Numbered from the stretch's first letter, positions 2,055 to 12,441 are shown. The stretch is DNA of 27,781 bases from Thermoplasmata archaeon (GCA_013329135.1 DUKU01000080.1:446-28226); one strand, 5' to 3'. Notes: a model not told the origin generated them from the sequence alone. Program-made: numbers and translations.

Positions 2055-2900
2055 ATGAAGCTCCTTGGCGGCCATGTATCGGTCACGGGCGGCGTCAGGA
2101 ACGCGCCCGAGCGCGCGCGTGCTGTGACATGCGACTGCATGCAGATATTCTCGAAGAACCAGATGCAGTGGGCGTCCAAGCCGCTGGACCTCGAGGACGC
2201 GGAACAGTACAAGGCGAACATGGGAGCGCACGATATCAGCGAGACCGTGATCCACGACTCATACCTGATAAACCTGGGCAGCCCGGACAACGCGTTGCTC
2301 AAGCGGTCCCGGGAGGCCTTCCTTGACGAGGTCGTGCGGGCCAAGCACCTCGGCGTCAGGAACCTGATATTCCACCCGGGCGCGCATATGGGGGCCGGGG
2401 AACAGGCCGGATTGAAGCGGGTCGCGGATTCGCTCAACTGGGTCAGGAAGGAGTTCGGCTCCGGGGATGTCCGTTTCGTCCTCGAGAACACCGCGGGCCA
2501 GGGCACGGTGCTTGGCCACTCCTTCGAGCAGCTCGCGAAGGTGATCGGCATGCTTGATGACCAGAAGAACGTGGGGATATGCTTCGACACGTGCCACGGT
2601 TACGTTGCGGGCTATGATGTCCGGTCGAGCGACGGTTACGAGAAGACCTTCGATTTGCTAGACGAAGTCCTGGGTATCGAGATGGTCAGGGCCATGCATA
2701 TCAACGATTCCAAGGGGAAGCAGGGGTCGCATCTGGACCGGCATGAGCAGATCGGGAAGGGCTTCCTCGGGCTCGAGTGCTTCGGACATTTCATGAACGA
2801 CGACCGTTGGGACGACATCCCGATGGTCCTCGAGACCCCTGAGGGTGAGAAGGGGTACAAGCAGGAGCTGAAGGCGCTCAGGTCGCTTGTCGTCAAGTGA
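2055..2900 (+). CDS. nfo: Endonuclease IV (AP endonuclease 2 family)
   Basis: LLGGHVS, IHDSYLINLGS, FHPG, LENTAGQG, ICFDTCH, HINDSK and DRHEQIG Zn-ligand motifs. Confidence 0.95.
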   Translation: MKLLGGHVSVTGGVRNAPERARAVTCDCMQIFSKNQMQWASKPLDLEDAEQYKANMGAHDISETVIHDSYLINLGSPDNALLKRSREAFLDEVVRAKHLGVRNLIFHPGAHMGAGEQAGLKRVADSLNWVRKEFGSGDVRFVLENTAGQGTVLGHSFEQLAKVIGMLDDQKNVGICFDTCHGYVAGYDVRSSDGYEKTFDLLDEVLGIEMVRAMHINDSKGKQGSHLDRHEQIGKGFLGLECFGHFMNDDRWDDIPMVLETPEGEKGYKQELKALRSLVVK

Positions 2901-4809
2901 GGCCTTTCAGTTCAAGGCCGACCTTCTCCACGACGTCCACGTCACCCGGAGGCATGACGCTCTGCACCTCCTCGATGGGGACCTGCAGCTCATCGGCCAG
3001 GAGCTTCGCGAACGAATCCTTGTCCTTGCCTCCGGGCCTCAGGACCACGAACTTCTTGGACCGGGCCTTGACCGCTGACTCGGGCCCGCACATGACCTTG
3101 CGCGCCCCCTCGTGCTCAACCTCTCCGACGGCCAGCTTGATGCTCAGCTTGTCAGAGTAGTTCCTCTTGCCCCTGATGACGAACGCGCCCTTTGCCAGGA
3201 ATTCCCCGCTCTGGGGCGTCTTGCTCACCTGTTCCGGGAGCACCCAGTACCCGCTCGCGGAGCCTATCTTGGCGTTCCAGGCCTTCGATGTGGCGACCGC
3301 GAACTCGCAAGCCTCGTGAAGTGTTATGTCGGTCACTCCCTCGCGCATCTTGACGACCACGCTCGGCGCGCCGTGCATGTCCGCGTGCGCATACCTGTCC
3401 CCTGCGTCGAGATGCTTCTTCACTAGGGTGTCGTTGCTCTTTGCGTCCTTGCCGCCGACCACGACGACTCCCTCGCTGGAGATGAACCATCTGTACCGCT
3501 CGAACCAGAATCTCTTGGACGGCTTGAGGACCTTCCTCTCCCGCTTCTCGGCCTCCTTGCGCGCCATGCCGTCGACGTCGTCCCGGGTCTCATGGATGAC
3601 CTTCAGCACTCCCTCGAGTTTCCTCCTGGCCTTCTTCGACTCCTCGTAGTACCTCTGGGCGTTCGACTCAACAGTGCCCTTGACATCGAGGATGATGGTC
3701 GAACCTTCAGCGCGGATGGTCAGGAGAGCCCTCCTAGGATCGTATCCGACGAACCCGGGTGTGTCCTCCAGGCTCACGTGCCCTTCCACCTTCTTGCGCG
3801 CGTCCGTGATGGTCTTGTCCGTCTCGGAATACCTGGCGAATAGCGCGTCCCCGGTCGCCTGCGCCTCCCTGGCCTCGTCCTGCAGCTTGATGACCGCGGC
3901 CTCCTGCTGCGTGATCCGCCTCTTGAGCTTGTCGAACTCCTTCGTATCTTCCTTGGGCTTATCCTTCTTGGTCGCTGGTTTGCGGGATATGTACTCCTCG
4001 AGCGCCTCTGAGAATGAGCCGAACTCCTGCGTGTCGAGGCCTTGGTATGCATTCATCCTGATCGGGACCACGTCCTCGGGCGCTCCGCCCCTGCTCACGA
4101 GATACCCCTTGCCAGATGCCGCTGCCTCCGCCATCAATTCTCTGATCGCCTCCAGGAGAGCCTCTGCCTGGGCCTCTCCTACCTCAGCGGCTTTGATGGC
4201 CGGCGCGATCCCTGTCCTCGCGCACAGCTCCTCGCTGTACCTCCCGCCCAGGTTGAGCTTCGTGGCGACCGTCCGCACGAGGTCCGCGTCCGAGGACCGG
4301 AGTATCTCGAGGAGTGCCGGCGCATCGATGACACTGGGGTCAGGCACCGGTGGTGGGAATGAGAACTCTCTCTTCGCCTTGACGTCCCTGTGCTTCCATG
4401 TGTGACTCGTCAGGGGCTGCACGATTGCGCCGTCCTTGACCAGTATGACGTTCCCGTCCCCGAAGAGTTCCAGGACGAGCTCGAAGGTCTCCTCCTTCTC
4501 GAGCGTGAGGACGACTATCCTGTCGAACCCCTGCTGCCTCACGCCCGCTATGCGGGCGTTCGTGACCCTCTTCCTGAGCATCATCGCGAAATCTGAGGGC
4601 TGCTGGGGCATGTCACGTGACTTCTTCGATGTGAAGAGCCACTTGCCGACATGGAAGTGCAGGAACTCCTTGCCCTCCCCCGCCCCTCTGATGGACAGGA
4701 TGAGGTGGTTCCAATGGGGATGGTACACCTTGTCGAGGTGCCAGCCTACCCGCGGCTGGAGCTCCGCGACCACGGCCATCACATCGAAGCTGCTCAACGC
4801 CTCCTTCAT
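2893..4809 (-). CDS. rqc2: Archaeal Rqc2/NEMF (NFACT family) ribosome quality-control protein
   Basis: N-terminal SSFDV..VVAEL, QQGFDRIV, LELFGDGNVIL (NFACT-N), coiled coil, WFERYRWFISSEG, GGKDAKSND, HADMHGAPS, and SKTPQSGEFLAKGAFVIRGKRNY (NFACT-R/C). Confidence 0.92.
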   Translation of the reverse strand: MKEALSSFDVMAVVAELQPRVGWHLDKVYHPHWNHLILSIRGAGEGKEFLHFHVGKWLFTSKKSRDMPQQPSDFAMMLRKRVTNARIAGVRQQGFDRIVVLTLEKEETFELVLELFGDGNVILVKDGAIVQPLTSHTWKHRDVKAKREFSFPPPVPDPSVIDAPALLEILRSSDADLVRTVATKLNLGGRYSEELCARTGIAPAIKAAEVGEAQAEALLEAIRELMAEAAASGKGYLVSRGGAPEDVVPIRMNAYQGLDTQEFGSFSEALEEYISRKPATKKDKPKEDTKEFDKLKRRITQQEAAVIKLQDEAREAQATGDALFARYSETDKTITDARKKVEGHVSLEDTPGFVGYDPRRALLTIRAEGSTIILDVKGTVESNAQRYYEESKKARRKLEGVLKVIHETRDDVDGMARKEAEKRERKVLKPSKRFWFERYRWFISSEGVVVVGGKDAKSNDTLVKKHLDAGDRYAHADMHGAPSVVVKMREGVTDITLHEACEFAVATSKAWNAKIGSASGYWVLPEQVSKTPQSGEFLAKGAFVIRGKRNYSDKLSIKLAVGEVEHEGARKVMCGPESAVKARSKKFVVLRPGGKDKDSFAKLLADELQVPIEEVQSVMPPGDVDVVEKVGLELKGLT

Positions 4810-4896
4810 GATGTCCGACTGATGTCCAGGTACGGTAATAAATGATGCGACGCCCCCTGACCTGGGACTGCTGGCGCGTCGAACCCCTCAACAACC

Positions 4897-4904
4897 TTTT
4901 AATA
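4897..4904 (+). promoter_or_regulatory. TATA box of tRNA-Thr
   Basis: TTTTAATA about 35 nt upstream of tRNA G1, preceded by an A-rich BRE-like ACAACC. Confidence 0.6.
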
Positions 4905-4938
4905 CGCAAGGCAAGATGACTTCCGGCCTAGTCAGAGC

Positions 4939-5013
4939 GCCACTGTGGCTTAGAGGTATAGCGACGCCTTGGTAAGGCGTAGGTCGAGGGTTCGATTCCC
5001 TCCAGTGGCTCCA
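4939..5013 (+). tRNA. tRNA-Thr(GGT), CCA encoded
   Basis: Acceptor GCCACTG/CAGTGGC, anticodon arm ACGCC-TTGGTAA-GGCGT, T arm GAGGG-TTCGATT-CCCTC, discriminator T followed by CCA. Confidence 0.97.
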
Positions 5014-5112
5014 TCCTTCTCGACGCGGGATGAAAGGCGGTTGGGATTTGGGAAGGGGTTTTGCCAGACGCCTGTTCCCGGGGCCATCTTCTCGGGGGCC
5101 CCGCGGCCTCGT

Positions 5113-7425
5113 CTATTCGTCCGGGGGCGGGACCGGCTCTCCGGGGTTGCCATCGCCCTTCTTGCGGTTCAGCATCAGCCACACGACGGCGAGCAGGACG
5201 ATCGCGACCACGAACAGCCCTATGGACATGTACATCAACATGTCCGCGAAGGAATCGGTGTCGTCGACCCGCGCGTTCACATCGTCCAAGTCCTGCTGTG
5301 CCTCCTCTTCCAGGGCGTCTATCATGTCCTGGAGATCCTCGATCTCCTGCAGGAGCGACTCGTTCATGCCGTCCAGCCGTTCCAGCAGGTCCTGCAGTTC
5401 CCCGGGCGTCACGTACGCGGGCGGTTCGTAGGTCACGGTGATGCTCTCGCTCGCGGAGTTGCACAGTCCGTCCTCGGCGACGACCGTGACCGTGTTCTCC
5501 CCTCCGGAGAGGGCTATGACCGCGCTGAACCCGCCTGCGCCGTCCTCCGCAGACACGCCGTTGACCCAGACCTCTGCCGACGGGTCATCGACAGTGCCTG
5601 AGACCGTCAGTGCCGCATCGTCGACCGTCGCCCCGTCCAGAGGCGAGGTGACCGCTATGGCTGGGGCGGTCGTGTCCAGGACGACCGCGAACTCGGTGTA
5701 CGCCTGGTTGCCCACGCCATCCGTAGCCTCCACGACGATGACGTTGTCCCCCTCGGCGAGCGCCACGGTGTCTGAGAACGACCCGTCCGGCATCACGGCC
5801 ACAGAGATCCCGTTGACCGTCAGCTCAGCGTCGGCGTCCGTCCAACCCGCCACCTCGGCGGAGTCTGTCGCCGTCGGGGAGTCGACGTCCTGGACCCAGA
5901 GCCCGCAGTGCGTGTCCGATTCGATCATCTTGACCACTGAGTCGCTGACGCCCGCGTCGTTGACGGATTCGATGGTCACGATGTTCAGCCCTTCCTGCAG
6001 CGCGACGGTGTTCTGCTCAAAGTACCCGTCCACATCTGCGGCGATGTCGTACGAGTCAGACTCGGTCGTGATCGACACGTCCGAGTACGGGTCGGTGTAG
6101 CCCCTCACGATGACCTCGGTCAGGGCCAAGGTCGTGCTGTCGGGTATCGCGACCTCCGTCTCAGGATCCGCGAACTCGGCCCAGAACTCCTCTATGACGG
6201 AGTTGACGGAGAACTCCGCGTACTCGTGGACCCAGTTTCCGGCTATGTCGTGGGCCCATATCTCGAGGTAGTGGTCTCCCTGCGTCAACGGGTATATCCA
6301 CTCTATCGTGACGTTGGCGTCATCGACTGAGGCGTATGGCTGAATGTCCCAAATGCCGTCCAGGACCACGTAGAAGTCCGACGAGTCCCACCCGGAGTAG
6401 AATTCCGTGTGGTCGTTCACATAGAACGACACTTCCAGGTCCGTGGAGGGTATCACCGAGCCGCCCACGGGGTACAGGTCATCTATCGAGGGCTCCCCGA
6501 CGTCGAACACCCTTATCTCGAACGGTATGCTGATGGAGTCGTTAGAGCCCATGAACCCTAGGGTGGCCCATCCCACGAACACGCCGACCCTCTCGGGCAC
6601 GCTGTACGATATGTTGAAGTCATGAACCCCTGTGCCGACAGGCGTCTCCAGGTCCGTGACCTCTATGTACCCTGGCACCCCGGCGAGCACCGACAGGGAG
6701 AAGTACCCAGGCCACCCCGTCACATCGTTCCCCAGCACCTTGACCAGGTATTGTCCGTCGTCTGGCGCTGCCAGCTCGATGGATTCGTAGGACCCTGAGG
6801 CCCCCACGTACCAGTACGGCTCCGTCAGGTCGGCGATGTTGTCCATGTCCTCGTCGTGCCAGAGCCCGAGGTCGATGTCGGGGCATCCCCAATCCTCCTC
6901 CACGGTGACGATCAGGGCGTGGCTGTCCTCGACCCAGACTGGCATGGTGAACACCGCGTCCGCGAGATCCGACACGAAGTCGCCCGTCAAGACGTCCGGA
7001 TAGATCTCCATGTCGCGGTAGTCGAACAGCTCGTAGGGGCCGTCCCCTCCTCCCATGACCTCCACGGTGTCGGTGACGGTGATGTCATACCATCCTCCCT
7101 CGACGACCCCGGTGAGTGGCACGTCCCCGGGCTGCGGGGCGAACAGCCACACGTCGGCCGGAGAGTATCCGCCCAGCCCTATCAAGGCCGTGTACCCGTA
7201 CAGGGTGTCCTGGGCGGTGTGGCCGGCCATCACTGGACAGGAATCCATCTTCTCGAACGGGTCCGTGACAGCGAATCCGCCAATCGATTCATAGTCTGCA
7301 GTCCCGTCGTCCGCCGCCACGGTCTCGGCCTGTGCTGGTGCCGATACCATTACGACGAACGAAGCCATCACCATCAGAGCCATCAGCAGGAAGCTCAGGC
7401 TCGGACGTCTACACTCACTGATCAC
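5113..7425 (-). CDS. Membrane-anchored acidic surface protein: signal peptide, PPC-like module shared with the neighbouring subtilase, ~3 Ig-like (glucodextranase-B-like) repeats, coiled coil, C-terminal TM helix
   Basis: GTG start with AGGAGG SD. Hydrophobic signal ending APAQA. Repeats of type V.G.T/VD...V.VNG......G.F...V.L.EG.N.I.V.A.D..GN. Acidic heptad stretch, TM segment MLMYMSIGLFVVAIVLLAVVWLML, then RKK. Confidence 0.85.
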   Translation of the reverse strand: MISECRRPSLSFLLMALMVMASFVVMVSAPAQAETVAADDGTADYESIGGFAVTDPFEKMDSCPVMAGHTAQDTLYGYTALIGLGGYSPADVWLFAPQPGDVPLTGVVEGGWYDITVTDTVEVMGGGDGPYELFDYRDMEIYPDVLTGDFVSDLADAVFTMPVWVEDSHALIVTVEEDWGCPDIDLGLWHDEDMDNIADLTEPYWYVGASGSYESIELAAPDDGQYLVKVLGNDVTGWPGYFSLSVLAGVPGYIEVTDLETPVGTGVHDFNISYSVPERVGVFVGWATLGFMGSNDSISIPFEIRVFDVGEPSIDDLYPVGGSVIPSTDLEVSFYVNDHTEFYSGWDSSDFYVVLDGIWDIQPYASVDDANVTIEWIYPLTQGDHYLEIWAHDIAGNWVHEYAEFSVNSVIEEFWAEFADPETEVAIPDSTTLALTEVIVRGYTDPYSDVSITTESDSYDIAADVDGYFEQNTVALQEGLNIVTIESVNDAGVSDSVVKMIESDTHCGLWVQDVDSPTATDSAEVAGWTDADAELTVNGISVAVMPDGSFSDTVALAEGDNVIVVEATDGVGNQAYTEFAVVLDTTAPAIAVTSPLDGATVDDAALTVSGTVDDPSAEVWVNGVSAEDGAGGFSAVIALSGGENTVTVVAEDGLCNSASESITVTYEPPAYVTPGELQDLLERLDGMNESLLQEIEDLQDMIDALEEEAQQDLDDVNARVDDTDSFADMLMYMSIGLFVVAIVLLAVVWLMLNRKKGDGNPGEPVPPPDE

Positions 7426-7507
7426 AACATCATCCTCCTAGATCCTCCCTCGGAAAGTGACTTGGGGGAAGCTCTCTCCTGAAGCATGGTGTAACCGAGA
7501 TGTAGCG

Positions 7508-7519
7508 TATTTAACCATT
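7508..7519 (-). promoter_or_regulatory. BRE/TATA of the surface-protein gene
   Basis: The minus strand reads GAAATGGTTAAATA. The 12-mer AATGGTTAAATA also occurs upstream of DUF134 (25068-25079). Confidence 0.6.
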
Positions 7520-7545
7520 TCACAAGCTGAAACAGGTATCTTGAA

Positions 7546-7821
7546 TCACGCTTCTGGACGAGCTAGCTGAACTGGGGCGTTTCTCAACCTGATGGCTTCG
7601 GCCTTTGTGACGAATTCCATAGTGCCAATCTGCCCTTTCAGGTAGTCTTGCATAAGCGCCAGAGCCTCTGAAGGCAACTCCTCAGTCAGCTCCACAGACG
7701 CATTCCCAAGCGCCCCCAAAGGCCCGTAGGAGAGCATCTGGGCCTGCTCTGCGAAGATGTCTTCGAGCACGGGGTTGTCGTACCAGTCCCTCATGTTACC
7801 TCCCTGCGTCGGGTCGGCGAA
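7546..7821 (-). pseudogene. Probable C-terminal fragment of an ABC-transporter solute-binding protein, fused in frame to the rqc2 remnant
   Basis: WYDNPVLEDIFAEQAQMLSYGP...LALMQDYLKGQIGTMEFVTKAEAIR resembles the terminal helices of sugar-binding SBPs. Many A/T-ending codons, unlike the flanking genes. No N-terminus present. Confidence 0.45.
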
Positions 7822-8290
7822 CCCGGTCCTCGCGCACAGCTCCTCGCTGTACTTGCCGCCGATGTTGAGCTTGGTCGCGAGTGTGCGGACGAGGTCGGAG
7901 TCGGATGCCCACAGTATGGCGGACAGCGCGCTGCCGTCCATCGTGGCCGGGTCCGGTACGGGCGGGGGGAATGCGAAATCCCTCTTCGCCTTCACATCCC
8001 TGTGCTTCCAGATGTGGCTCGTGAGCGGCTGCACTATGGTGCCATCCTTCACGAGTATGACAATGCCGTCCGCGAAGAGTTCGAGGACGAGGTCGTGGGT
8101 CTCCGCCCTTCTCGAGCGTGAGCACGACTATCCTGTCGAAGCCCTGCTGCCTCACGCCCGCCAATCGGGCGTTCGTGACCCTCTTCCTGAGCATCATGGC
8201 GAAGTCGGAGGGCTGCTGTGGCATTTCCTGCCCCCTCTTCAAGACGTAGAGCCACCTGCCCACATGGAAATGGAGGAACTCCTTGCCCTC
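7822..8290 (-). pseudogene. rqc2: rqc2 pseudogene fragment (about codons 45-200)
   Basis: About 125/156 identical residues to the intact Rqc2 by hand alignment. One extra base near 8105-8108 (CTCCGCCCTTCTC vs CTCCTCCTTCTC). Start, promoter and C-terminal two-thirds are missing. Confidence 0.93.
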
Positions 8291-8327
8291 TCTACGCAAG
8301 GCAAGATGACTTGCGACCTAGCAGTAT

Positions 8328-8399
8328 GCCACTGTGGCTTAGAGGTATAGCGACGCCTTGGTAAGGCGTAGGTCGAGGGCTCGATTCCCTCCAGTGGCT
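8328..8399 (+). tRNA. Second tRNA-Thr(GGT), probably a pseudo-tRNA
   Basis: Identical to copy 1 over 72 nt except T-loop TTCGATT>CTCGATT (T54C). Followed by CAT, not CCA. The upstream TATA is deleted. Confidence 0.85.
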
Positions 8400-8469
8400 C
8401 ATCTATCCTTCAAGGCGTTAGAAAAGGCAGTTGGGGTTTGAGGAAGGGGTTTTCGATCGCGTCCAGGGC

Positions 8470-11400
8470 TCACTCGACGACCGTTATCCGGACCTCGATC
8501 CTGAACATGTCCGCGGAGCCGAGGAACCCGAAGGTCGCGGCGCCGACATATATTCCCGGCACCGCCGGCACGCTCCACTCGATGACGAACTCGTGCGCGC
8601 CGGAGCCTACGAGGGAATCGAAGCCAGACGCGAGTATGCTCGCGCCCTGTATGCCCTGCATCACGCTGAGGCCGAAGTATCCCGGGTCTCCGGAGACGGT
8701 GTAGCCCAGCACCTTGATCAGGTACTGTCCGTCAGCGATGTCCCTGAGGGTCAGGGTCTCCGAGGACCCTCCCATGCCGACATACCAGTACGGCTCGTCG
8801 AGGGTCGCTACGCCGTCCATGTTCGCGTCGTACCACAGGCCCAGGTCTATGTCCGGGCAGTTCTCGACCTCCCAGACGGAGACGATCAGTATGCTCGCCG
8901 TCGCGACCGATATGGGCATCGTGTACGCCGCGTTCGCCAGGTCCGCCACGAAGTCGGACGAGAGCACGTCCTGGTAGATCGGTATACTGTCCCACTGCGT
9001 CGCGATGGTCGGGTCCACGCCTCCGCCGAGCACATCGACGGTCCCGTCGACCGTGATGTCGTAGTACGCGTCGATCGTGCCTGATGCCGAGTCGCCATCT
9101 GACAAGTCCACGGTCAAGTCGACCGAGGACGGGTTGAGGTCGTTCAGGACGACCCACTTGGTCACGCCATCGAACTGCTCTCTGGCCTCGTCGCCCGCCA
9201 TGAGCGGGCACCTGAGCACTATCGCGAACGGCGCCGGGGCCCCGAGGGCGTTCTCATAAGCGCCCAATGGGGCAGCTATGACCTCTTTCGGCCCACCGGT
9301 GTTGGTCCACGAGGCGAATATGCCCGCTCCCATGTACCTCTCGTCGCTCGACGCTATGCCTGTCTGGTAGAAGCCGGGACCGTACGGCGCCGCGAAGATC
9401 TGCTCGTTTGCAGCATCTGGGTCGACCGCGATAGGCGCCAACACGTGTATGTTGATGTCCGTGGGCAGCTCCTCCCAGTCGACAGATGTCATCAGGTACG
9501 CGTTCTCGTCGGGCATCTCTGAGGGCACCGACCAGTATATGCGCCAGTCGCCGACCTCGAACCTCCACCACTTGTCCGACTCGCCCACTACGTCGTTGTT
9601 GTAGGGCGTGTCGAACAGGGAGTCGCCTCCGAACTCGAACTCGTAGTCCGTCGCAGGCACATTGACCAGGATGGGTATGCTCTGCACGCGCGACTCGTCG
9701 TCGATGTACACCGCGGCTCCGTAGGATCCGACAGGCGCATCCTCAGGCACGGTCACCTTGAGCTCCCAGGACACCTGTCCGCCAGCGGGCACATCGGCCG
9801 AGAGCGAACTCTCCCAGTCCTCAGAGCCCGAGAGCCTTGCCTGGGCCCATGGGAACGGCTGGAGCGTGTAGTAGTCCAGCTGGATACTGATATCGATGCC
9901 CGCGGTCGGGACTATCGCCCTGACCCTCACGATCATGCCGTCGGTGATCCTGTCGAGCGGGTCCTTGATCATTATCTGGTTCGCGTTGCACTGGGACCCG
10001 TCCACGCTGAACCTCAGGAGCTCCCAGTTCGAGCCCTTGACGTTCAGGATGCCGTTGCCGTTGAGGTCGACCCAGTCGTGCACCTCGAGCCAGTATTCGA
10101 AGTCCTGGACATAGTCCATGTTCGGGTCGAGCTGCTCGAGCGGCATGAACATCGTGACCTTCAGCAGGTCTGTGCCTTCCGGTATGTACTCCGTCACGTC
10201 GAGCATGATGTCGCCGGTCGTCTTGGTGACCGATTCGATCACATCGGTTTCCAGTGGGTCTCTGAGGAGCAGCTGGCTCGATATGTCGACAGTGACATCT
10301 TCATCGCCGAGGTTGGTCGTCGTGACCAGCTCCACGTCCGACTCGCCTGGCAGTATGAAGTTCGGTGACATCTCGTAGCTCACGCCGTTCAGGCCTCCCG
10401 GGTACAGGGCAGCCTTCGCGAACAGCTCGCCGTCGACCATCGACACGACGCCATCGGAGCCGCTCATCGCATCAGCGTATGTGCCGGCGTTGAGCCAGCC
10501 AGCGCCCTGCTTGAACGGGTCGTAGTGCATGTCGTCCGCGGCCGCCATCAGGACTGCCTTCGCGTAGTCCTTGTCAGGCGCCCCGCCGAATGTCTCCATA
10601 AATGCCTGGTATCCGAGAGCCGCGCCTCCCGCAGTCGTCGGGGTCGCATGGCTCGTGCCGCTCCCGACCTGTAGGTGGGCAGCGCCGTTGCCTATGGTCC
10701 CCAACTCGTCCGCGATGTTGAGCGGCATCGGCTCGAGCGAGTACATGCCGGACGCGATGATCTCCGCGTTCAGCTTGCCGTTCCTGCCAGGTCCCGAGTT
10801 CGAGAACGGAGCGACATCGCCCCACTTCTGCTCGCCTGGTATGGTCTCGTATCCGAGCCAGTACCTGTACTGCATGGTGGTGCCTGCACCAACATGGACC
10901 GAGGTCGCGTCAACGATGCTGTGCACGGTGCCGTATCCCGGGCCGCCGTTGCCGGTGGACCAGAACCAGAGCGTCGGGCCCTGCATCGATATGGTGGTCA
11001 TGATCATGTCCAGCTCCGTGTAGCCCGCATCGACCGCGGTATCCGACCAGCCGTAGCTGTTCGTCACAAGGGTGGCTTCATCGCCAGTGCCAGGAGTGCC
11101 GTCGGCTCCGAACTGGGCGAACATCCAGGCGTTCACGGTGCTCCCGGTGAAGGGTATGCATATGAGTCTCGCACCGGGCGCCATGCCCCCGAGCTGTCCT
11201 CCCATGGTCAATCCCTGAGCGACTGCCGACGAGGATGTCATCGTTCCGTGGGTGCCTGCGTAAGCCCCCATGAAGGCGACCGCGTCCCCAGCCTCGGCCT
11301 TGAACTCAGCGCCGTAGGTCCAGCCGGATGCGGGATAGACATTGATCCCGTCTGCGATCCAGTACGCCATGCCGCCCGAGTAGTCAGCGAAGCCATCGCC

Positions 11401-12441
11401 CGCGTTCCAGGCGCTGGTGTCCGTGAGGCCCGTGGTGGCGTCGTACAGGTCGAAGTACGATATCTCGTCGCCCATCGTGCAGGGCTTGTCGTTGGTGAAT
11501 GAGAAGTCGCGCAGCACGTCGACATAGACCGTGTCGTACACGCCGGAATCAACAGAGTCCACAACGAGCACTGCGACAGGGCCGCCCCAGAGGGCCGCCA
11601 GAGTCGGGTCAGGGTGGTACCCGATGTGGTACGTCCCGCTCATGCTCATGACTTTGTTGCCTTCTATGTCCATGAGGCCCTTGACCTTGTACTTGACCCC
11701 GTCGAACAGCACATGGGCGCCCTTCTTCGCGGCCACCTCAGTCGTGGTGTCGGCCATCCAGCCGCCGATGTTGCCGTTCTTCCACTGCAGCGCGGCGTAG
11801 TCATCGTATGCTATGGGCCAGCCCATATATGGGCCGGATTCGTGCCTGGCCTGCTGTCCCTGCATGTCAGGGTGGGCCATGTCGAACCCGTCGTCGATGA
11901 CTGCCAGAAGCACGCCTTCGCCGTCATAGCCAGACTCCCATGCGTCCACTGCGCCGTGGACCACATCGATGTCGTAGTCTTCGGGCGCCGGCACGAGTGA
12001 GTCAACCGACACGCTGTCCCTGAGCAGCTCCGCCTTCGACTCGTCGACGCTCGGCTTCTCGAAGGCCAGGATGCTCGTCACGCCATCGGCCGCCGCCAAC
12101 GCGGATATAGTCCCCGCGTCCAAGGCCATGAGGCTGACCGTCGGCATTCCAGCGAACTCCCTGCTCGCTATCTCAGGCAGTCCTCTCGAGGTGAGCACGG
12201 TGTTGGCCGCAGCCCTGTCCTCGGCGATCACATACACATCAAAGGGGCCATCGGACTCCAACATCAGCTCTCTCAATGCGGAGTCGACCCTGGCCCCGTT
12301 ACCGTCCGAGCCCATGCCATCCTGGTCATATGCAGTGCTCTGCGCGGTCGTCGGTGTTGGACCGATGACCGCGAGTGCCGCCACGACCATGATCGACGCG
12401 AAGATGACACTTAGGCTAGCTCTCCTTAACATCGTTTTCAC
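8470..12441 (-). CDS. Large secreted S8 (subtilisin/pyrolysin-like) serine protease with C-terminal beta/PPC-like modules and no membrane anchor
   Basis: Signal peptide and prodomain. Catalytic Asp in LAVIDDGFD, His in AGTHGT, oxyanion region GNGGPG, catalytic Ser in GSGTSHATP, then QGAGWLN. A large insert lies between the D and H motifs. Confidence 0.92.
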   Translation of the reverse strand: MKTMLRRASLSVIFASIMVVAALAVIGPTPTTAQSTAYDQDGMGSDGNGARVDSALRELMLESDGPFDVYVIAEDRAAANTVLTSRGLPEIASREFAGMPTVSLMALDAGTISALAAADGVTSILAFEKPSVDESKAELLRDSVSVDSLVPAPEDYDIDVVHGAVDAWESGYDGEGVLLAVIDDGFDMAHPDMQGQQARHESGPYMGWPIAYDDYAALQWKNGNIGGWMADTTTEVAAKKGAHVLFDGVKYKVKGLMDIEGNKVMSMSGTYHIGYHPDPTLAALWGGPVAVLVVDSVDSGVYDTVYVDVLRDFSFTNDKPCTMGDEISYFDLYDATTGLTDTSAWNAGDGFADYSGGMAYWIADGINVYPASGWTYGAEFKAEAGDAVAFMGAYAGTHGTMTSSSAVAQGLTMGGQLGGMAPGARLICIPFTGSTVNAWMFAQFGADGTPGTGDEATLVTNSYGWSDTAVDAGYTELDMIMTTISMQGPTLWFWSTGNGGPGYGTVHSIVDATSVHVGAGTTMQYRYWLGYETIPGEQKWGDVAPFSNSGPGRNGKLNAEIIASGMYSLEPMPLNIADELGTIGNGAAHLQVGSGTSHATPTTAGGAALGYQAFMETFGGAPDKDYAKAVLMAAADDMHYDPFKQGAGWLNAGTYADAMSGSDGVVSMVDGELFAKAALYPGGLNGVSYEMSPNFILPGESDVELVTTTNLGDEDVTVDISSQLLLRDPLETDVIESVTKTTGDIMLDVTEYIPEGTDLLKVTMFMPLEQLDPNMDYVQDFEYWLEVHDWVDLNGNGILNVKGSNWELLRFSVDGSQCNANQIMIKDPLDRITDGMIVRVRAIVPTAGIDISIQLDYYTLQPFPWAQARLSGSEDWESSLSADVPAGGQVSWELKVTVPEDAPVGSYGAAVYIDDESRVQSIPILVNVPATDYEFEFGGDSLFDTPYNNDVVGESDKWWRFEVGDWRIYWSVPSEMPDENAYLMTSVDWEELPTDINIHVLAPIAVDPDAANEQIFAAPYGPGFYQTGIASSDERYMGAGIFASWTNTGGPKEVIAAPLGAYENALGAPAPFAIVLRCPLMAGDEAREQFDGVTKWVVLNDLNPSSVDLTVDLSDGDSASGTIDAYYDITVDGTVDVLGGGVDPTIATQWDSIPIYQDVLSSDFVADLANAAYTMPISVATASILIVSVWEVENCPDIDLGLWYDANMDGVATLDEPYWYVGMGGSSETLTLRDIADGQYLIKVLGYTVSGDPGYFGLSVMQGIQGASILASGFDSLVGSGAHEFVIEWSVPAVPGIYVGAATFGFLGSADMFRIEVRITVVE

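Follow-up and report, generated by a model that had tools for sequence, protein, structure and literature searches.

The window examined here is a stretch of 27,781 nt from a Thermoplasmata archaeon (GCA_013329135.1 DUKU01000080.1:446-28226; GC content ~0.61), whose source is an archaeal metagenome-assembled genome (MAG) of 1.7 Mb that is 84% complete and divided into 208 contigs. Two adjacent genes on the minus strand encode a protein of 770 amino acids (aa), labeled P0001 (5113-7425), and a protein of 1323 aa, labeled P0002 (8470-12441). P0002 is an S8-type protease without a membrane anchor, P0001 is an anchored protein without a catalytic domain, and the two share a module of ~250 aa. A sequence-only reading of the locus had proposed that they form a two-part surface protease, in which the P0001 scaffold would tether P0002 to the cell by homotypic contact of the modules, and had derived both genes by complementary deletions from one hypothetical anchored protease. 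The locus is compared below with fetched loci (L), genomes (G) and sequencing runs (X).

Both open reading frames (ORFs) and the shared module were recovered at the positions proposed by the sequence-only reading. In BLASTP, residues 56-308 of P0001 align with residues 1071-1323 of P0002 with 116/254 identities (46%; E 2e-57). Module homology proper begins at CPVMAG in P0001 and CPLMAG in P0002, which places the module at aa 63-308 (6502-7239, minus strand) and aa 1078-1323 (8473-9210, minus strand), respectively. The 'PF' match that precedes these motifs in the alignment is a coincidence, and residues 1-62 of P0001 derive from the N-terminus of an anchored protease, not from the module. The N-termini of the two proteins are weakly similar (BLASTP, 14/39 identities, E 6e-4). 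The position of the module was also as described: in P0002 the stop codon follows it directly, and in P0001 it comes after the signal peptide region.

P0002 consists of a signal peptide, a propeptide, an S8 domain, beta-rich middle domains and the C-terminal module. The Peptidase_S8 match (PF00082; E 1.1e-18, 68 bits against a cut-off of 21.8) covers aa 174-648 (10498-11922, minus strand), and PDB subtilases were matched at E 3e-8. The catalytic triad appears in the order D-H-S, with D183 in IDDGF, H398 in HGTM and S597 in GTSHATP; the same motifs occur in the relatives of both classes introduced below, and in P0002 an insert of 215 aa separates the catalytic Asp and His. An AlphaFold2 (AF2) model of residues 640-1323, which comprise the middle domains and the module, is compact (predicted TM-score, pTM, 0.80).

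P0001 matches three Glucodextran_B stretches, Big_13 and Cadherin-like in Pfam, with no match to PF00082. The Ig repeats, coiled coil and transmembrane helix that had been read from its sequence, like the Peptidase_S8 domain of P0002, were all supported by Pfam and AF2. The first 62 codons (7240-7425), which hold the signal peptide and the first propeptide residues, are followed by the module, by Ig-like beta-sandwich repeats (aa 309-666; 5428-6501; Pfam, AF2 and Foldseek), by a short acidic helical stalk of coiled-coil type (aa 676-717; 5275-5400; AF2 helices 678-686 and 690-717), and by a C-terminal transmembrane helix (aa 726-754; 5164-5250; an AF2 helix and hydrophobic stretch) that ends in a short basic, proline-rich tail, all on the minus strand. 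The AF2 model is disordered over residues 1-78 and shows confident beta domains at 80-308 (the module, with predicted local distance difference test, pLDDT, values >90) and 313-666 (Ig-like), followed by helices at 678-717 and the transmembrane helix at 726-754. When the complete P0001 model was compared with the PDB by Foldseek, all matches were generic strings of Ig, cadherin and adhesin domains, which is uninformative on the module. Searching the P0001 sequence against PDB chains gave no match, and NCBIfam gave only sub-threshold noise.

When 5.8 billion protein clusters were queried with the module, 60 proteins were recovered, all from Thermoplasmata-like MAGs, and these fall into three length classes. 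Proteins of the SHORT class (~1305-1345 aa) carry the S8 domain only and end at the module. Those of the LONG class (37 of the 60 matches; 1790-2216 aa) combine S8 and module with Glucodextran_B/Big_13 and coiled-coil-type matches, in an order that runs from signal peptide, propeptide, S8 domain and middle beta domains to the jelly-roll module, Ig repeats, coiled coil and C-terminal transmembrane helix. The LONG protein is thus predicted from its sequence to be a stalked, membrane-anchored protease contained in one polypeptide, and the 37 LONG proteins are the single-gene form, with signal peptide, S8 domain, module, Ig repeats, coiled coil and transmembrane helix, that the sequence-only reading had treated as hypothetical. 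The third class consists of two short proteins, P0001 itself and P0059 (814 aa). P0059 was considered as a second scaffold-only protein and rejected: its frame remains open as far as the first contig base and runs into the S8-protease sequence that precedes the module, which identifies it as a LONG protein cut by the contig end. A second search of the same collection, made with the P0001 module, yielded no additional scaffold-only protein. Other families of the class also include ORFs of 2100-3190 aa that carry a more distant form of the module (G037, G038 and G040).

SHORT and LONG proteins are ~55% identical over residues 1-1070. The module had been regarded as a special element common to otherwise different proteins, a view that fails here, since SHORT and LONG are homologous over the full length of SHORT. 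A maximum-likelihood tree was built from the C-terminal ~684 residues of 21 SHORT and 18 LONG proteins, and in it one branch with 100/100 support splits the two classes. This topology identifies SHORT and LONG as old paralogs, with a single ancient loss or gain of the anchor. P0002 ends at the module like 20 other SHORT proteins, lies inside the monophyletic SHORT clade, and is orthologous to the SHORT proteins of relatives (79-94% DNA identity). Given the age of that clade and the single, fully supported branch between the classes, the proposal that the subtilase is a local deletion product of a full-length gene does not hold. The idea of complementary deletions of one anchored protease therefore survives in part: the two architectures are complementary and P0001 is derived by deletion, but P0002 is not.

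Both classes belong to a family of large S8 proteases in Thermoplasmata that appears TPP II/pyrolysin-like and has two old paralog lines. Like P0002, TPP II (3lxu) has an S8 domain in which ~200 aa are inserted between the Asp and His of the triad. It was also the top Foldseek match of the post-catalytic region of P0002 (E 1.7e-11), the best match being to TPP II residues 534-1025, although the TM-scores are low (0.15-0.23) and the root-mean-square deviation (rmsd) is 11-14 Å. LONG and SHORT proteins thus look TPP II-like. However, TPP II is a giant cytosolic oligomer of eukaryotes, unlike the secreted or anchored proteins of these archaea. Nothing specific was retrieved when the literature was searched for a stalk-anchored subtilase of Thermoplasmata.

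The derivation of P0001 from a LONG gene was confirmed at several levels. The P0001 module is 70-77% identical to that of the LONG proteins P0049, P0050 and P0053, compared to 46% for the module of P0002, and the part that comprises the Ig repeats, coiled coil and transmembrane helix is 63-68% identical to the same three proteins. At the DNA level, P0001 is colinear with the LONG gene of L001 in two blocks. The first (window 7516-7244 against L001 4282-4554) covers the LONG upstream region, which in the window occupies 7426-7516 on the minus strand, and the first ~60 codons. The second (window 7239-5154) corresponds to the 3' part of LONG, from about codon 1089 onward. Residues 1-61 of P0001 align residue by residue with residues 1-61 of the LONG protein P0053. 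The stretch equivalent to LONG aa ~63-1088 is missing, as judged by both Pfam and DNA/protein alignment, and the joint (7240/7239, from alignment to intact LONG genes) reads ...KMDS|CPVMAG..., in frame. The corresponding sites in the LONG protein of L004 are ...KLDS-ELAEK and ...ILTR-CPVMAG, and intact LONG proteins generally have K(L/M)D(S/A)-ELAEK at the first of them. A total of ~1027 codons, comprising propeptide, S8 domain and middle domains, has therefore been removed with the reading frame kept. On this point the sequence-only reading was right: P0001 arose by deletion from an anchored protease of full length.

The edge of the deletion does not coincide with a domain border. The first 16 residues shared with the module (63-78) are disordered in the AF2 model of P0001, and their equivalents in P0002 have pLDDT values of 88-95 and lie inside the compact body described above. 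The cut was thus made within a structural unit.

The module itself has known structural counterparts. In VIA-align superpositions, which aligned 95-97 residues at an rmsd of 1.9-2.0 Å, residues 1142-1264 of P0002 matched the C-terminal beta-jelly roll of Tk-SP (3afg, Z 11.9, rmsd 1.9 Å; 9ues, Z 11.7) and KP-43 (1wmd, Z 11.1). The modeled core of the module corresponds, by these superpositions, to the beta-jelly roll that follows the protease body at the C-terminus of subtilases. Sequence identity to Tk-SP and KP-43 is nevertheless only 13-18%, and in the module further beta strands flank the jelly roll on both sides. The jelly roll of Tk-SP binds two Ca2+ ions and is itself required for hyperstability (PMC3599501). 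In halolysin SptA, a jelly-roll-like C-terminal domain adds stability and binds protein substrates (PMC3158780). SptA is, like P0002, an archaeal subtilase with such a domain at its C-terminus, but its extension, which carries a disulfide between Cys303 and Cys338 (PMC3158780), is much smaller, and the likeness is one of fold description. The module is therefore an ordinary C-terminal accessory domain of the protease family, and its role is most likely in stability or substrate binding. Its presence in both P0001 and P0002 reflects residual paralogy, because it is merely what outlived the deletion in P0001.

If the modules served to dock one protein onto the other, the two genes would be expected to travel together, and the syntenic slot in which they reside offers a direct view of how often they do. 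This slot lies between a Na/sulfate symporter gene and rqc2/NFACT, whose intact, native copy in the window (2893-4809, minus strand; Pfam NFACT_N and NFACT-R_1; synonymous divergence, dS, 0.34-0.36 to L004 and L014) forms its right end. Four states of occupancy were observed. Seven loci contain SHORT alone (L006-L009, L011, L012 and L014); L004, L010, L013 and probably L003 contain LONG alone; five contain LONG followed by SHORT (L001, L002, L005, L016 and L017); and the order SHORT, NFACT fragment and truncated LONG occurs only in the window and in L015. Many genes of L014 and L016 are split, including those for FeoB and AP endonuclease and, in L016, both proteases; these look like uncorrected frameshift errors of long-read sequencing more than pseudogenes. 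Whole-genome searches gave a module match in 17 of 24 genomes of the same family, with both forms present only in G003 and G019. The sequence-only reading had made co-occurrence in related genomes one of its yardsticks, and co-occurrence proved largely rare: both forms are present in 2 of the 17 genomes, and SHORT-only and LONG-only genomes of high quality exist. The pair of a stalk-only gene and a protease gene is not conserved either. The stalk-only gene was found in this groundwater population only, and SHORT occurs alone in at least seven loci or genomes. Since SHORT-only and LONG-only slots exist, SHORT would not need an anchored partner, and SHORT and LONG would each function alone. By the same token, P0002 would be an autonomous secreted protease.

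These distributions bear directly on the two-part surface protease, in which P0001 would hold P0002 at the cell surface as a stalk holds its subtilase in tetrabrachion/STABLE. The complementary architectures, the adjacent and co-oriented genes with signal peptides in both products, the intact ORF and expression signals of P0001, the LONG/SHORT tandem in five other loci, and the precedent of Staphylothermus marinus, in which STABLE, a subtilisin-family protease, sits on the membrane-anchored coiled-coil surface stalk tetrabrachion (PMC5744192), all speak for such a system. However, SHORT is found without LONG or scaffold in G002, G004, G005, G006, G010, G014 and L014, and LONG without SHORT in G013, G018, G021, G023 and L004. 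Moreover, the scaffold-only form is limited to one near-clonal population and results from a deletion whose edge falls inside a structural unit, the module belongs to the standard jelly-roll accessory domains of subtilases, and the predicted complex of the P0001 and P0002 modules provided no positive evidence of binding (its score of 0.01 against a mark of 0.32 counts neither for nor against contact). We regard tethering of P0002 by P0001 as improbable. The locus instead probably holds a truncated anchored LONG gene beside an older, intact, anchor-less SHORT paralog, with the shared module as a remnant of paralogy and not as evidence of a docking pair. P0001 is an ordinary deletion allele in a rearranged locus, and a two-part tethering system is unsupported.

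The comparison with tetrabrachion/STABLE extends to the LONG proteins, which also combine protease and stalk. They differ in that both elements belong to one polypeptide, and the stalk-only gene of the window arose as a deletion allele and does not encode a dedicated S-layer protein. In addition, tetrabrachion has a 70-nm four-helix stalk, compared to a coiled coil of ~40 aa in P0001. The likeness of P0001 to tetrabrachion is of layout only. The same can be said of the SlaB/SlaA pair of Sulfolobales. P0001 shares with SlaB a signal peptide, beta-sandwich domains, a coiled coil and a C-terminal transmembrane helix (PMC5744192), and the gene of an unanchored partner adjoins P0001 as well, an analogy that is again restricted to layout. 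P0002 is, however, an enzyme and not a lattice protein like SlaA, and the P0001/P0002 pair is not conserved across relatives.

The surroundings of P0001 provide a record of how the truncated gene may have entered the locus. A segmental repeat with 80-87% DNA identity occupies window positions 4205-5062 and 7817-8453 and spans the 5' part of rqc2/NFACT, tRNA-Thr(GGU) and ~50 nt beyond the tRNA. Two copies of the tRNA gene were identified by ARAGORN on the plus strand, copy a (4939-5013), which adjoins the 3' end of P0001, and copy b (8328-8400), which is native to the SHORT locus and differs by one base. Copy b of the repeat lacks ~225 nt that correspond to the first 44 NFACT codons and the shared promoter region. 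What remains of the second rqc2/NFACT gene is a broken 5' fragment (7822-8290, minus strand; codons 45-201) with one frameshift. Between this fragment and the LONG upstream region lies a filler of ~305 nt (7517-7821) for which neither the genome nor 16 related loci yielded a homolog, except the identical sequence of L015; the ORF of the NFACT fragment runs through it to a stop at 7546.

The divergence of these elements is uneven. Genes that flank the slot in the window show dS values of 0.32-0.41 to the sister genomes L014 (SHORT-only) and L004 (LONG-only), and tRNA copy b with its flank is 93.5% identical to L014. Because its dS to the SHORT gene of L014 is 0.26, P0002 can be considered the native, vertically inherited SHORT gene of this lineage, as far as divergence reveals. 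P0001 has dS values of 0.75-0.94 to every LONG gene, including that of L004. The NFACT fragment likewise shows dS values of 0.67-0.90 to all orthologs, including the NFACT gene of its own genome, with a ratio of nonsynonymous to synonymous divergence (dN/dS, or omega) of 0.13-0.18, and in a DNA tree it falls outside the clade formed by the NFACT genes of the window, L004 and L014 with 100% bootstrap support. Since its divergence is mostly synonymous and given its position in the tree, the fragment diverged as a working gene in a different lineage, and its disruption is recent. Duplication of the tRNA/NFACT block in place, as a tandem copy that later decayed, was considered and is disfavored by this tree position and by the low omega of the fragment.

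The truncated LONG gene and the rqc2/NFACT fragment appear, from these divergences, to have been imported from a congeneric donor. In the simplest scenario, a circularized donor fragment of the order tRNA-Thr, rqc2 5' part, filler and LONG would have entered a SHORT-only locus by Campbell-type recombination at the near-invariant tRNA-Thr gene, an event that would duplicate the tRNA and would thus explain its two copies. The in-frame deletion of ~3 kb in LONG would have occurred before or after import.

Other loci show that the region is prone to such events. In L004 (GCA_041320395.1, 15908-16882), which among LONG-only relatives is the closest, rqc2/NFACT is cut after ~296 codons and followed by unrelated genes, those for SecE and two FtsZ proteins; this is a second, independent rearrangement breakpoint in rqc2/NFACT next to the same slot. 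In L003, an insertion sequence (IS) element with a DDE_Tnp_1 transposase and a 133-aa ORF (2811-3777) lies between LONG/tRNA-Thr and NFACT, and provides further evidence that the slot is a rearrangement hotspot.

An arrangement that combines a truncated gene with a duplicated tRNA/NFACT block, in a MAG as fragmented as this one, could also be a chimeric join of two co-occurring strains, all the more as related species with SHORT-only and LONG-only loci exist. The gene order however recurs in L015, a locus of a groundwater metagenome, and on two contigs (61.7 kb and 45.3 kb) of other assemblies, and five near-identical variants of the truncated protein came from at least four assemblies. Independent Logan contigs from runs X1, X3, X9 and X12, which represent four studies and include one soil sample, read across the deletion joint with 0-2 mismatches; the junction of filler and LONG upstream region is likewise spanned, by contigs of X1 and X3. 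The joints lie outside repeats. An assembly artefact is consequently a most improbable explanation, and the arrangement can be taken as real.

Several observations weigh against regarding P0001 as a simple remnant and the two proteases as independent. P0001 is a clean ORF of 770 codons that keeps the LONG upstream region, a GGAGG motif 8 nt ahead of its GTG start, the signal peptide and the anchor. Its dN/dS values against intact LONG genes are 0.17-0.27, and in a three-taxon split its dN branch (~0.09) is no longer than those of L004 (0.07) and L005 (0.08). This low dN/dS and ordinary branch make a retained or new function of P0001 possible. Where LONG and SHORT are both present they are always adjacent, which is compatible with cooperation as well as with an origin by tandem duplication. 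The autonomy of SHORT is deduced from genome content, and several of the SHORT-only genomes consist of 3-10 contigs and are 65-94% complete, so that 'not found' falls short there of proven absence, although the genomes agree in their pattern. Finally, the recombination route is a reconstruction, to which tandem duplication with several losses is still a formal alternative.

Most of the divergence between P0001 and LONG genes is older than the deletion. Note that no separate dN/dS was used for codons 1-61 of P0001, which were misplaced in the MAFFT codon alignment. Differences among the five variants of the population amount to only 1-2 residues, so that selection after the deletion is not measurable. 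Set against a retained function are this limit, the single near-clonal population and the cut inside a structural unit, and we consider P0001 most likely to be a deletion allele that is recent and nearly neutral. The protein, if made, would be a catalytically dead, membrane-anchored stalk with a head of jelly-roll/beta-sandwich type and, at the N-terminus, a tail of ~45 aa that is acidic and disordered.

Such a product could nevertheless act as a neo-protein unrelated to P0002, as an anchored, non-catalytic surface protein for adhesion, for polymer or peptide binding, or as an envelope component. Its ORF is intact, compared to the frameshift and 225-bp 5' deletion of the co-imported NFACT fragment, and omega is well below 1. 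Precedents for a part of this kind can be found in the jelly-roll extension of halolysin SptA, which can bind insoluble substrates by itself (PMC3158780), and in the SlaB-like succession of beta-sandwich, coiled coil and C-terminal transmembrane helix (PMC5744192). The absence of independent recurrence outside one population, the unmeasurable selection after the deletion, a deletion boundary off the domain border, and the shortness of the coiled coil make this role unlikely, if somewhat less so than tethering. Alternatively, loss of the catalytic half may have made a dedicated stalk that now holds the anchor-less paralog or a substrate, which would represent a recent, natural division of a stalked protease into two pieces, of the tetrabrachion/STABLE kind and captured within one population; we give this scenario as little credence as the tethering of P0002. 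If it were true that the truncated stalk binds the free protease, the locus would be a rare natural snapshot of the origin of a two-component surface enzyme.

With the deletion allele as the preferred account, the locus illustrates how a tempting reading of split enzyme and scaffold can stem from one deletion in one of two paralogs, and how quickly synteny across relatives settles such readings. Of wider use is the description of a widespread family of very large S8 proteases, seemingly of TPP II/pyrolysin type, which Thermoplasmata of groundwater and sediment carry in a stalk-anchored (LONG) and a free (SHORT) form. Both forms share one hypervariable slot by tRNA-Thr, in which they are gained, lost and exchanged between congeners, with bearing on how these protein-degrading archaea deploy extracellular peptidases. 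Elsewhere in the window, positions 91-2016 encode a 641-aa acetyl-CoA hydrolase/transferase fused to a C-terminal GNAT acetyltransferase domain, a fusion that is kept in relatives.

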